Source of the DNA: Candidatus Woesearchaeota archaeon
GTDB taxonomy: Archaea; Nanobdellota; Nanobdellia; Pacearchaeales; GW2011-AR1
Direction: 5' to 3'
Assembly: GCA_964495875.1 (NCBI GenBank)
Contig: CAZBWB010000001.1
Location: forward strand, 10,269-74,268
DNA: 64,000 nucleotides
Shown: piece by piece, positions 15,170 to 23,760 of the stretch
How positions within the stretch are numbered: position 1 is the first letter of the stretch
Layout: the number at the start of each line of letters is the position of its first letter
Program-made: the position numbers and the translations under genes
The notes under the pieces: model-generated
What the model was told of the DNA's origin: nothing
Databases searched by the model: none
Seen by the model: only the letters and a program-made list of their open reading frames with translations

Positions 15170-15191
15170 ATTTATCCAGATATTTTAAAAC

Positions 15192-15283
15192 ACGCCCTGG
15201 GGCAGCTCAGAAAATCAAAGATTTTCTGGGACATTCAAGATTTGCATCTTGAAGTGAATCGAACCTGCGAACAGGTTCAATAA
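15192..15283 (-). other. Orphan tRNA 3' fragment (T-arm plus acceptor 3' strand) with a ~50-nt two-hairpin insertion in the T-arm
   Basis: ACGCCCTGG (15192-200) and GAATCGAACCTGCG (15256-69) repeat the 3' end of the adjacent tRNA-Ser (15283-91, 15296-309). The inserted segment contains perfect hairpins at 15208-28 and 15234-53. Confidence 0.5.
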
Positions 15284-15422
15284 CGCCCTGGACAGGAATC
15301 GAACCTGCGGGCCCCGAAGGGCGTGGATGTTTGCTCCTTCTCTTTTAAGGGAGGTTGACGGTCAAGGAACCGTAGGTGCCTTACCTTAGCAATCCACTGC
15401 AATACCACTATGCGACCAGGGC
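15284..15422 (-). tRNA. tRNA-Ser(GCU) with a ~58-nt intron at canonical position 37/38
   Basis: Acceptor GCCCTGG/CCAGGGC+G. Anticodon arm GTGGA-TTGCTA..A-TCCAC. Long variable arm GCCCTTCGGGGCC. T-arm GCAGG-TTCGATT-CCTGT. The intron 3' end AGCAA pairs with the anticodon loop, as in a bulge-helix-bulge (BHB) splice motif. Confidence 0.85.
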
Positions 15423-15482
15423 ATATTATTATGGAATTATCAGAGATTTAAATTATTTGCTTTTTTGTGAATAAAATGAAAA

Positions 15483-15683
15483 TAGCGGGGATAGGATTTG
15501 AACCTATGACCTCCGGGTTTCCCATGCAACTTCCATCAGAGGCAATTTAAGAAGTTGCCTATCCGCATCGGAAGGAGGTTGACTGTCAAGGAACCTTGGT
15601 CCTTTACATTATGGGCCCGACGAGCACTCCAGATTGAGCTCCATCAAATCTTTTATAACTTGACGAATCTGCTCCACCCCGCT
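15483..15683 (-). tRNA. Initiator tRNA-Met(CAU) with two introns (D-loop ~34 nt; anticodon loop ~89 nt)
   Basis: AGCGGGG...CCCCGCT+A (A1:U72). Three G:C pairs closing the anticodon stem (GGG/CCC), anticodon CAT, T-arm ATAGG-TTCAAAT-CCTAT. The intron 3' end ATGGG pairs with CCCAT. Confidence 0.8.
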
Positions 15684-15735
15684 ATATAACATTCATCTTG
15701 ATTAAATTTATAAACCTTTTTAATTTTCAAAATTA

Positions 15736-22489: not shown

Positions 22490-23620
22490 TCAAAAACTAA
22501 TCAACTTAACTTTTGTATCAGTTGTTGCAAAATTCTTTGCCACAATGACAGAACAGCCAGCTTCTCCTGCATTTTTTATTGCAGAATTTGTTGCAATACC
22601 ATCAATTATTATTGCAAAAGCTTTTTCATTTATTCTCTTCAATGTGTTGCTTAAATTTCTCACAGGGATTTTTTTAATTTCATTTAAAGAAGCATTCAAA
22701 AGGACAGCTTTTCCTGAACCTTTATTTTTTTTGAAAATTTCCTGAAGTTTTTCTTTGTTTAATCTTACATCTTTTTTGGAAGAAGAGGAGCTCTTTTTGA
22801 ACCCCTCTCTTGATAAAAATTCTTCAGCAGATATTTTCTTTCTCAAAGCCATGAAAATTTCTTTTCCGGTAAGTTCTTCAACTTCTTTTCCGTCAGGTGC
22901 TCTTGCAATATAAGAAATCTTTACATTATCAACGACATTCTGGGCAATCAGTTTTCCGCCCCTGTCACCATCAATAAACAGAGTAATTTCTTTTTCTTCA
23001 TTTAATTTTTTTATTTCATCAGGAAGTTTTGTTCCATTCATTCCGATTACATTATTAACACCATTTTTGATTAAATTTAAAACATCTGCCCGTCCTTCAA
23101 CAACAACAATCTCCTTGCCTGATAAATCTCCGCATGGAAGTTTGCTTTCTCCATATTCCTGAATTCCGGCCATTCTTGAAGCACTCTTAATTTCCTCAGA
23201 AATTTCTCTGGAACTTGTTGAACCCTGAATTTCTCGCATTAATTTTTTAGCCCTCTCAATAATGTAGTCTCTCTTGCCTCCACGGACATCTTCAATTCTT
23301 TCAACTTCAATTTGAGAATCACACGGACCTATTCTTTCAATTGTCTCTATTGCTGCTCCAATCAAAGTAGTTTCTGACTGGTCTAATGCAGTGGGAATTT
23401 TGATAACACCAATAGTTCTTTTGTTTTCCCTGTGTAAATCAACTTCTATTCTGCCTATTTTTCCTTCTTTTTGCAATTCCCTCATTTCCAAATCTGCCCC
23501 TAAAAGTCCCTCTGTTTGTCCAAAAATAGCTCCGATTACATCGGGCTTTTCCGGTGCACCTTCGGCTACGAAATTTGCATGTATCATGTATTTTATCGAT
23601 ACTGGACTTATTTTTGCCAT
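22490..23620 (-). CDS. dnaG: Archaeal DnaG-type primase (TOPRIM)
   Basis: N-terminus KYMIHANFVAEG..VIGAIFGQTEGLLG. TOPRIM VVVEGRADVLNL ... FIDGDRGG. Confidence 0.85.
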   Translation of the reverse strand: MAKISPVSIKYMIHANFVAEGAPEKPDVIGAIFGQTEGLLGADLEMRELQKEGKIGRIEVDLHRENKRTIGVIKIPTALDQSETTLIGAAIETIERIGPCDSQIEVERIEDVRGGKRDYIIERAKKLMREIQGSTSSREISEEIKSASRMAGIQEYGESKLPCGDLSGKEIVVVEGRADVLNLIKNGVNNVIGMNGTKLPDEIKKLNEEKEITLFIDGDRGGKLIAQNVVDNVKISYIARAPDGKEVEELTGKEIFMALRKKISAEEFLSREGFKKSSSSSKKDVRLNKEKLQEIFKKNKGSGKAVLLNASLNEIKKIPVRNLSNTLKRINEKAFAIIIDGIATNSAIKNAGEAGCSVIVAKNFATTDTKVKLISF

Positions 23621-23719
23621 TATTTTTTATTCTCCAATTTAATTAATTGAAACCATAATGATTTCACATAGAAAAATATCTTTTACAATTTCTTTCTCAC
23701 TACTTCAAATGAAGATAAC

Positions 23720-23760
23720 GTAAGACACCCACGGTTTCTTGACGTTCAACTTCCCTTAAA
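23720..23760 (+). repeat. Free-standing copy of the tRNA-intron core element
   Basis: GTAAGACACCCACGGTTTCTTGACGTTCAACTTCCCTTAAA matches the 5' part of the tRNA-Ser(GCU) intron (30/36 over the core). It lies on the opposite strand to the tRNA genes, and no tRNA exon sequence flanks it. Confidence 0.45.

Follow-up and report, generated by a model that had tools for sequence, protein, structure and literature searches.

How introns arrive in archaeal tRNA genes is an acknowledged open question, and an Asgard intron census in a 2026 preprint gives no general route of arrival and leaves the question open (bioRxiv 10.64898/2026.10.13.758758). In the Thermoproteales, similar introns in non-orthologous tRNAs have been read as the outcome of intron transposition, for which no mechanism was named (Fujishima et al. 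2010, Mol Biol Evol 27:2233, as given in PMC4090602). The present analysis concerns two neighbouring tRNA genes, those of tRNA-Ser(GCU) and initiator tRNA-Met (iMet), in a stretch of 64,000 nucleotides from a Candidatus Woesearchaeota archaeon (assembly GCA_964495875.1, contig CAZBWB010000001.1, positions 10,269 to 74,268 of the forward strand), called the window throughout. An initial annotation, made from the letters of the window, had noticed that the anticodon-loop introns of these genes share a near-identical core of 22 nt. Each intron holds a copy of a structured repeat unit of 36 nt which is dispersed in this and related genomes, and intron sequence is here traceable to a discrete repeat that is also found outside introns. 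The question of intron arrival is thereby made testable, as unit length, fold, orientation rules, filled and empty sites, nesting and putative target duplications at tRNA ends are all defined.

Within what the source gives of the Thermoproteales, the likeness to our case is in near-identical introns in different isoacceptors, in their patchy distribution and in the gain at the DNA level that these imply. The differences are that the shared part here is a discrete hairpin unit and not a whole intron, that all 33 intron copies sampled are at the canonical anticodon-loop site, and that the unit also stands reverse-complemented in mRNA and tRNA leaders and is found in RNase P RNA and in a protein open reading frame (ORF). 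In the literature searched, no archaeal repeat is described as common to tRNA introns, mRNA leaders, RNase P RNA and ORFs, and we know of no report of such non-intron locations for the Thermoproteales.

Short, dispersed, non-coding hairpin repeats of variable copy number are familiar as the Rickettsia palindromic elements (RPE) and as the bacterial repetitive extragenic palindromes (REP) and bacterial interspersed mosaic elements (BIME); they are tolerated in frame and sometimes co-opted. The present unit resembles RPE and REP in being a short hairpin repeat without coding capacity, dispersed in protein and RNA genes, and an RPE-like behaviour is seen in its in-frame insertion in the aIF2-gamma gene of one relative (G126) and its insertions in RNase P RNA genes. 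It differs in being archaeal and 36 nt long, in an orientation tied to context, in its predicted removal from tRNA genes by splicing, and in the lack of a REP-associated tyrosine transposase (RAYT) or other Y1 transposase in the genome.

Canonical introns with a bulge-helix-bulge (BHB) motif are cut by EndA and joined by RtcB. The introns described here share with them the position 37/38, a predicted 4-bp helix between the anticodon loop and the intron 3' end, a predicted 3-nt 3' bulge and the presence of an EndA gene in the genome. They differ in that the helix beyond the 5' bulge is the intron's own hairpin, in a predicted multi-helix junction without a continuous outer helix h'. For Caldiarchaeum, tRNA fragments and introns derived from mobile elements have been proposed (Sugahara et al. 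2012, PMC3293823). Copies of the unit at tRNA ends, described below, are alike in that an insert stands between direct repeats of a tRNA gene end and that mobile DNA is proposed as a source of tRNA introns; they differ in that the inserts are only about 60-90 nt, lack a recombinase gene and have within them a stretch complementary to the tRNA end that is duplicated. Work of Randau and Soll from 2008 is reportedly to be grouped with such integration-derived tRNA fragments and introns.

Two tRNA introns with a common repeat unit

Genomes, contigs and loci of the comparison are cited by working numbers (G, C and L), G000 being the assembly that holds the window (632 kb in 5 contigs, 32% G+C). The only sequencing runs found to contain the locus are DNA runs from a sediment metagenome. 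Both RNA-sense strings quoted in the initial annotation were located on the minus strand within 15180-15720, a tandem pair of tRNA genes about 60 nt apart. The pattern GGTTCCTTGACNGTCAACCTCC is exact at 15350-15371 and 15574-15595, where the two cores agree at 21 of 22 positions just as had been described, and none of 100 shuffled controls contained any match to the core pattern. The aligned homology of the two introns extends for about 36 nt from intron base 2, the length first proposed, with an identity of 30/36. To draw the exon boundaries of both genes, we aligned them with orthologues without introns that occupy the syntenic position beside the RNase HII gene, in four genomes of the same genus and one genome of a neighbouring genus of the family. 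Removal of the introns restores a complete tRNA, the exons of G000 being equal to the intron-less Ser(GCU) and iMet of those orthologues.

The tRNA-Ser(GCU) gene (15284-15422, minus strand; exons 15387-15422 and 15284-15328) is the sole gene of this kind found in the genome. It was recognised by aragorn (Ser(gct), i(38,58)) and by Rfam (RF00005, 40.5 bits), whose alignment has a 60-nt insertion in the anticodon loop. The intron of 58 nt at 37/38 (15329-15386, minus strand) was placed by alignment to the intron-less Ser(GCU) genes of G001, G002, G004 and G005 and by its fold, in which the 3' end GCAA-AC pairs with UUGC of the anticodon loop and makes the 3' bulge. At intron base 2 begins a unit of 36 nt and of the subfamily here called a-type (15350-15385, minus strand), which matched our covariance model of the repeat, R1, with 69 bits (E 9e-19). 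Its hairpin is 15360-15385 (GGUAAGGCACC-UAC-GGUUCCUU-G-ACC) and its tail 15350-15359 (GUCAACCUCC).

The initiator tRNA-Met gene (15483-15683, minus strand) contains two introns and is for this reason mis-handled by Rfam and aragorn. It was read from the sequence, its exons (AGCGGGGTGGAGCAG|TCTGGAGTGCTCGTCGGGCCCATA|ACCCGG...) being those of the intron-less iMet of congeners. The anticodon-loop intron, 91 nt at 37/38 (15519-15609, minus strand), was placed by congener alignment and fold and ends in AUGGG-AA, which pairs with CCCAU of the loop. Its base 2 is the start of a 35-nt unit of the b-type (15574-15608, minus strand; R1 54.5 bits, E 3e-14), with the hairpin at 15584-15608 (UGUAAAGGACC-AA-GGUUCCUU-G-ACA) and the tail at 15574-15583. 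The two introns are thus alike because each holds a copy of the unit, and the copies belong to different subfamilies.

Structure of the unit

The unit consists of a hairpin of 11 bp in which one G is bulged, N-GU-AAGGNACC-loop-GGUUCCUU-G-AC-N', followed by the tail UCAACYUCC, which is unpaired and conserved. The hairpin is made up of a 3-bp foot (N-G-U/A-C-N'), the bulged G, an upper stem of 7-8 bp and a loop of 2-5 nt. Over an alignment of 89 copies from about 45 genomes, 94.8% of cells were paired, as compared to 25-55% in slid controls, and the covariation score was 0.252 versus 0.083 in shuffles. The closing pair N-N' (positions 3-35) is UA in 45 copies, GC in 27 and CG in 14, and is unpaired in none of 86. 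Compensatory changes are found in the upper stem as well, at pair 9-28 (GC 55, AU 28) and pair 14-22 (CG 72, AU 15).

An independent measure of unit length comes from the aIF2-gamma gene of G126 (L037), which has exactly 12 additional codons (VRHLRFLDRQLP) relative to the G000 orthologue (C1:122577). The insert is 36 nt and extends from GTAAG to CTTCCC (GTAAGACACC...CTTCCC); it is stop-free, in frame and in gene sense, and lies in the C-terminal domain. As judged from its sequence, it would add 12 residues to the protein if translated, or else be cut out of the mRNA. The size and fold of the unit are firmly established by these data.

The 22-nt core comprises the hairpin's 3' arm and the tail, and the core with its small palindrome gives way, as the unit, to a bulged hairpin with tail of 36 nt. 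The palindrome TTGAC-N-GTCAA, to which attention had been drawn, is present as letters but is not a conserved structural unit. Its N pairs with the base before GTAAG in 86/86 copies, and a reading of it as a hairpin or protein dyad was rejected on this ground and because the base that follows is variable. With this base variable, GTCAA is not a conserved half-site, and the palindrome is a by-product of the covarying closing pair.

A module GGGUCAAGCCUGAUW, related to GGAUGGUUCAUGACUGAU, is often found about 6-10 nt after the tail (examples are L033, L040, L042, L050, L100, L131 and G000 C1:397250-397290). The full element may be about 65-70 nt long, because this module can pair with the tail as a second hairpin. 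The last 36 nt of 16S rRNA (G000 C5:193-245; GGUA, helix 45, GAUCACCUCC) have the length and the ends of an a-type unit (GGUA, hairpin, GUCAACCUCC). Mimicry of the 16S 3' end, helix 45 plus anti-Shine-Dalgarno tail, was considered and rejected, as only the ends match and the c-type subfamily has no CCUCC; the likeness is probably a coincidence.

Copies in this genome and its relatives

In G000 the core occurs 8 times at up to 3 mismatches, and a hidden Markov model adds partial copies to a total of at least 10. Four of these are in tRNA introns, all in tRNA sense, namely those of Ser(GCU), iMet, Asp and Leu(UAA). The reverse complement ends directly at the ATG of the genes for the RFC small subunit, L18e, a KH/Dim2-like protein and GlyRS, and half a copy stands before an Mre11-like gene in the same register; protein names of leader genes, here and below, were read from translations without database search. 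The mature 5' end of tRNA-Arg(CCU) is preceded, at 1-3 nt, by a degenerate copy in reverse complement, and there is a second such copy in front of tRNA-Val(GAC). The third copy in the window, of the c-type (CGTAAGACACCCACGGTTTCTTGACG + TTCAACTTCC; 23719-23754, plus strand; R1 63.1 bits, E 6e-17), includes a core with 3 mismatches at 23733-23754 (plus strand). It is solitary, and its GTAAG end is directed toward a dnaG-like gene (22490-23620, minus strand), 95 nt from the ATG. The weaker echoes of the core that had been reported for the tRNA-His and tRNA-Lys introns are present as strings, but neither is found at E <= 10 by a covariance model of the element with its filters off.

The nearest relatives of the two intron units are not each other. 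The Ser unit is identical at 36/36 positions to the leader copy of the RFC small subunit gene (C1:192740-192785), which is in opposite orientation and 167 kb away, and the identity runs for about 40 nt. The iMet unit is nearest to the intron units of tRNA-Leu(UAA), at 34/35, and tRNA-Asp, at 33/35.

The strict core pattern was positive in 8 of 41 close relatives, so that the case in which no other intron or relative has the core does not apply. R1 was run on 151 genomes, each representing one genus of the family, and detected the unit in 65 of them, with 1-14 copies apiece. Matches occur also in three other families of the order. The copy number is 0 to 25 per genome, with 25 in G173, and the genomes of a single genus (g38) differ from 0 to 22 copies. 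Across the relatives, intron copies are in tRNAs of at least 12 amino-acid specificities. Introns of non-orthologous tRNAs in one lineage are similar here, which is the mark of transposed introns in the sense of Fujishima et al. (2010), and of the options offered at the outset it is transposition or duplication that stands, the similarity reflecting common descent of intron sequence across non-orthologous tRNAs.

Contexts, orientation and subfamilies

Contexts were sampled in 87 unique copies with flanks. The anticodon-loop introns of tRNAs account for 29 of these, all 29 in tRNA sense and none in antisense. With those of G221 added there are 33 intron copies, all in the anticodon loop, with the hairpin 2-6 nt past the anticodon and in 17 of the 33 at 3 nt, which is intron base 2. 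About two thirds of the sampled copies are outside introns, in leaders of ATG codons and tRNAs, in RNase P RNA and in a protein ORF, and the core is therefore not an intron-specific motif. Reverse-complement copies before an ATG with a long open frame number 26, at a distance of 0 nt (19 copies) or 1 nt (7 copies). Other copies are reverse-complement in tRNA 5' leaders (His in four genera, Glu, Arg and Val) or in sense directly past a tRNA 3' end. The GTAAG end faces functional sequence in every setting of the sampled copies.

The unit has two stereotyped settings with subfamilies of their own. In one it lies in the sense of a stable-RNA gene, chiefly in tRNA anticodon loops; in the other it is reverse-complemented and makes up the 36 nt that precede a start codon or a mature tRNA 5' end. 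Copies of the c-type, defined by AAGA/UCUU, the CUUCC tail and CACC in the 5' arm, make up 21 of the 26 leader copies versus 1 of the 29 intron copies; CACC itself, which reads GGUG in the mRNA, is found in 20/26 and 5/29, respectively (Fisher p = 1e-5). A c-type leader puts this GGUG, as a Shine-Dalgarno sequence, 7 nt before the AUG. The genes that follow leader copies are housekeeping genes, among them those for S3Ae (in three genera), L10e, L18e, L24e, aIF2-beta, GlyRS, PheRS-beta, the RFC small and large subunits, a proteasome beta subunit, FtsY and Elp3. Ordinary genes have a leaderless appearance in these genomes: their TATA box precedes the ATG, or in tRNA genes the 5' end, by about 21-23 nt. 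That one short repeat should provide, by co-option, the leaders of genes for ribosomal proteins, aminoacyl-tRNA synthetases and replication, where the genome is otherwise leaderless, would be of interest in its own right.

In the region C1:274920-275250 of G000, the gene directly downstream of the EndA gene, whose product begins with MPTQDTS, has only the last 11 nt of a leader unit left (GGTGCCTTACA ATG); a full unit stands before the G008 orthologue.

In RNase P RNA the unit is found at two different places, as a full unit between P5 and P8 in G001 (L015 1400-1765) and near the 3' end in G158 (L091) and G221 (L135). The RNase P RNA of G000 (C2:100100-100490; L025 294-689, minus strand) retains just the tail and a module, CUUUAAGGAUGGUUCAUGACUGAU, that is found behind the unit in the tRNA-Asp intron too. 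Annotators of these archaea should be aware that RNase P RNA and protein genes can bear the same insert.

At several tRNA ends a particular arrangement recurs, in which a copy of the tRNA end of 11-15 nt abuts GTAAG and is followed by the unit, a complementary stretch, a short spacer and the intact tRNA gene (L006 and L018 in G001; L038 in G012; L048; L052, at the 3' end of tRNA-Gln; L057, L088, L112 and L126). The promoter stands before the first, partial copy of the tRNA end. The sequence of these loci suggests that the duplication could be a target duplication, the scar of site-specific integration or an unrecognised intron close to the tRNA end. When the arrangement (first end copy, unit, complementary stretch, spacer, second end) was treated as a canonical BHB intron, no consistent motif could be drawn.

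Gain, loss and mobility of copies

Several loci can be compared in a filled and an empty state. The Ser(GCU) and iMet genes beside the RNase HII gene are intron-less in G001-G005. Between G000 and G004 the RFC promoter can still be aligned, the ancestral leaderless ATG included, and G000 has 61 extra nt after this ATG which end in the unit and a new ATG, 61 nt downstream of the old one. The ancestral ATG now opens an upstream frame of 16 codons (C1:192700-192790; L029), and this frame stops at a UAG in the hairpin loop of the unit, 10 nt before the new AUG. The KH gene adjoins the stop codon of its upstream neighbour in G001, G002, G004 and G005, and in G000 about 140 nt, ending in the unit, lie between them. 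Nested copies, one unit within the loop of another in the same orientation, are present in G221 (L129, L130, L136) and G157 (L103), and the composite of G221 is present three times. Further nested or composite copies are seen at L108 and L115 (G017). The unit behaves as portable DNA in these comparisons, and it is the bursts in copy number, the filled and empty orthologous sites, the nesting, the exact insert in a protein gene and the two context-specific subfamilies that argue for a mobile or portable element.

Miniature inverted-repeat transposable elements were considered; the copies have no terminal inverted repeats, the duplications are 0, 3 or 11-15 nt, and no longer element with shared ends was seen. 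Mobilisation of the IS200/IS605 or REP-RAYT kind also found no support: TTAC/TCAA strings, a bulge and a hairpin are present, yet Y1 transposases do not co-occur with the unit, PF01797 being present in G009, G019 and G024, which have no copies.

Relation to splicing

Both Ser(GCU) and iMet must be spliced because both tRNAs appear to be single-copy, and one EndA gene was found in G000 (PF01974, 99 bits, in a 173-aa frame at C1:274920-275174). In the thermodynamic folds, helix H and the 3' bulge are canonical, with UUGC/GCAA and the bulge AC|A in Ser and CCCA/UGGG and the bulge AA|A in iMet; the 3' bulge consists of the two intron bases after the exon-complementary stretch and nucleotide 38. 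On the 5' side the fold leaves nucleotides 36 and 37 and the first intron base unpaired, and the unit hairpin starts from intron base 2. In the predicted folds of all four introns (Ser, iMet, Asp and Leu) the 5' bulge is immediately followed by the hairpin. As it begins just after the unpaired 5' bases, the hairpin can stand in for the outer helix h', and since the remainder of the intron emerges between hairpin and helix H, the predicted site is a junction and not a textbook BHB.

It had been considered that exon-intron pairing might force the core upon both tRNAs. This is not so, as helix H is at the opposite end of the intron, at GCAA in Ser and AUGGG in iMet. The core is remote from the exon-pairing helix, but the hairpin adjoins the 5' splice site and can supply the outer helix, and the core is for this reason not wholly outside the splice architecture.

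Explanations for the dispersed unit

On balance we consider it probable that the shared core belongs to a short, structured, dispersed and mobile or portable repeat of Pacearchaeota-type DPANN archaea, and that this repeat has been co-opted for two roles, as helix of a splice site and as leader of mRNAs. In introns, the hairpin would offer a preformed helix beside the 5' bulge, a short 3' stretch of host-specific sequence would pair with the anticodon loop and so complete a bulge-helix-bulge for the single EndA, and the insert would then be taken out as an ordinary intron. In leaders, the GGUG of the c-type may have been co-opted for housekeeping genes in a mostly leaderless organism. Copies would survive where their RNA is harmless or useful.

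A number of observations weigh against a mobile, co-opted repeat. In orthologous Asp introns the unit is about 85% conserved over at least 6 genera while the remainder of the intron has diverged, and the c-type leader is near-identical between genera whose RNase HII proteins are only 58-70% identical; both are signs of selection, for which a purely selfish repeat has no need. It is because of this conservation in orthologous Asp introns and S3Ae leaders that we regard at least some copies as being under selection and consider both roles, that of splice-site helix in introns and that of structured Shine-Dalgarno leader before genes, to be co-opted. Ser(GCU) introns with the unit are found also in G221 and, diverged, in G012, and the absence from congeners could thus be loss and not recent gain. 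No terminal inverted repeats were found, and flanking duplications are inconsistent: the two introns have none, RFC has ATG, and at tRNA ends they measure 11-15 nt. The Y1 transposase PF01797 is absent from the copy-bearing G000, G001, G004, G008 and G012, in a search that did not include integrase, Cas1 and TnpB. The splice sites are predicted to be multi-helix junctions and not canonical hBHBh' sites, and EndA of the alpha4 type is usually strict on its substrate. Finally, the reverse-complement unit could lie between TATA box and start site, as a TATA-like box abuts it in most leader copies.

One may speculate further that the unit is a self-contained mobile splice-site cassette and the vehicle of tRNA intron gain, inserting into hairpin loops (anticodon loops, or its own loop when nested) and bringing the outer helix with it. 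A few exon-complementary bases would then suffice for splicing, and the mirror-image leaders would either undergo processing at this same foot of the hairpin or function as structured Shine-Dalgarno leaders. We hold this far-reaching version to be doubtful; if true, one element would rewire both RNA splicing and translation initiation.

It is also doubtful, to a similar degree, that the unit is in the first place a functional module of RNA or single-stranded DNA, read by a dedicated factor such as a processing nuclease or an RNA-binding protein and marking a point of cleavage or processing, where cleavage of a leader at the foot would regenerate a leaderless mRNA. Such a function would account for the GTAAG head, which always abuts a boundary, be it a 5' splice site, a tRNA 3' end, a tRNA 5' end or an AUG, at 0-4 nt in nearly all contexts. 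It would also account for the fact that sequence and not just structure is kept (the bulged G, AAGG/CCUU and the tail), for the long-term conservation in Asp introns and in the S3Ae leaders of three genera, and it would suit organisms in which most genes look leaderless. However, a single sequence-specific RNA binder cannot serve both orientations, because the sense and reverse-complement RNAs differ in sequence. The spacing to the AUG, mostly 0 nt, is unlike RNase Z-like or EndA-like cutting that leaves the AUG intact, and the explanation is without a candidate factor. The bursts of copies, their nesting and the in-frame insert of aIF2-gamma have a selfish appearance instead.

The possibility that the reverse-complement copies are promoter or operator DNA is in our opinion unlikely. 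The TATA box would abut the unit, transcription would start about 22 nt downstream in the loop, the 22-nt core would be the repressor site of a housekeeping regulon, and the intron copies would be incidental or decoys. In most leader copies a variable TATA-like box (TTATAAAG, ATTAAAG, ATAAAAG and others) does abut GGRAG, which is far less regular in introns. The distance from box to loop equals that from TATA to ATG in ordinary leaderless genes, and the Mre11-like gene retains only the ATG-proximal half of the unit, directly behind a TATA box. Against this stand the perfect N-N' covariation and the compensatory stems, which argue for a folded single strand and not a duplex site, and the variable base after N', by which the dyad is not conserved. 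Furthermore, GlyRS, tRNA-Val and tRNA-Arg have a consensus TFB recognition element (BRE) and TATA box about 22 nt upstream of the unit, so that the whole unit would be in the transcript, and the strict sense orientation in introns is left unexplained.

More improbable still is a role of the excised, possibly circular intron RNAs as antisense regulators of leaders such as that of RFC, by which tRNA splicing would be coupled to the translation of replication and translation genes. The complementarity is perfect over up to 40 nt, the Ser unit and the RFC small-subunit leader being identical and opposed as described, but intron and leader copies are mostly of different subfamilies, about 6-10 of 36 positions apart, and many genomes have only one kind or a single copy.

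An origin of the similarity in chance, convergent BHB constraint or recent local gene conversion, for which the short distance between the two genes might speak, is of negligible probability, given the empty shuffles, exon-pairing stretches that lie elsewhere in the introns (the ground on which BHB constraint was rejected), and a 30/36 match between Ser and iMet units that each have a closer relative at a distant locus, which excludes local conversion.

Further features of the two tRNA genes

Between the unit and the 3' end of the iMet anticodon-loop intron there is a second module, the hairpin GCAACUUC-UUAAAUUGCCUCUGAUG-GAAGUUGC (15526-15558, minus strand), which adjoins the exon-pairing stretch. 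The same hairpin is found in the leader of the KH gene (GCGAUUUU/AAAAUCGC), in a tRNA-Ala intron (C5:548-694) and at L008, L035, L051 and L117. Between the iMet intron, the Ala intron and the KH leader the loop UUGCCUCUGAYG is kept and the stems are compensated, and a continuation UUCCGAUNYGGA is common to iMet, Leu and Ala. Intron-encoded box C/D guides, such as that of Haloferax tRNA-Trp, have the C (RUGAUGA) and D (CUGA) boxes at their ends and a target-complementary guide. In the region of the two genes Rfam matched only tRNA, and on inspection the one likeness to a box C/D guide RNA is an internal CUGAUG within the loop of the second hairpin. Readings of this CUGAUG as part of a box C/D, H/ACA, hammerhead or K-turn RNA found no support, either in Rfam or by eye, where the motifs are incomplete.

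Directly 3' of tRNA-Ser(GCU), at 15190-15283 (minus strand), there is a partial second copy of the 3' part of tRNA-Ser. The stretch reads CGCAGGTTCGATTC, then a hairpin-rich insert of 56 nt, then CCAGGGCG, which is preceded by GAACCTG, complementary to CAGGTTC. It resembles the pattern of tRNA end, complementary stretch and tRNA end around the repeat in relatives, and the insert is a different one.

The initiator tRNA has C33, both here and in its orthologues of the same genus. Its second intron, of 35 nt, lies in the D-loop between gene positions 15 and 16 (15634-15668, minus strand), as placed by congener alignment, and is missing in all congeners. The 3' end of this intron, GGAGCUCAA, can pair with exon GGAGC via a GAGCUC palindrome.

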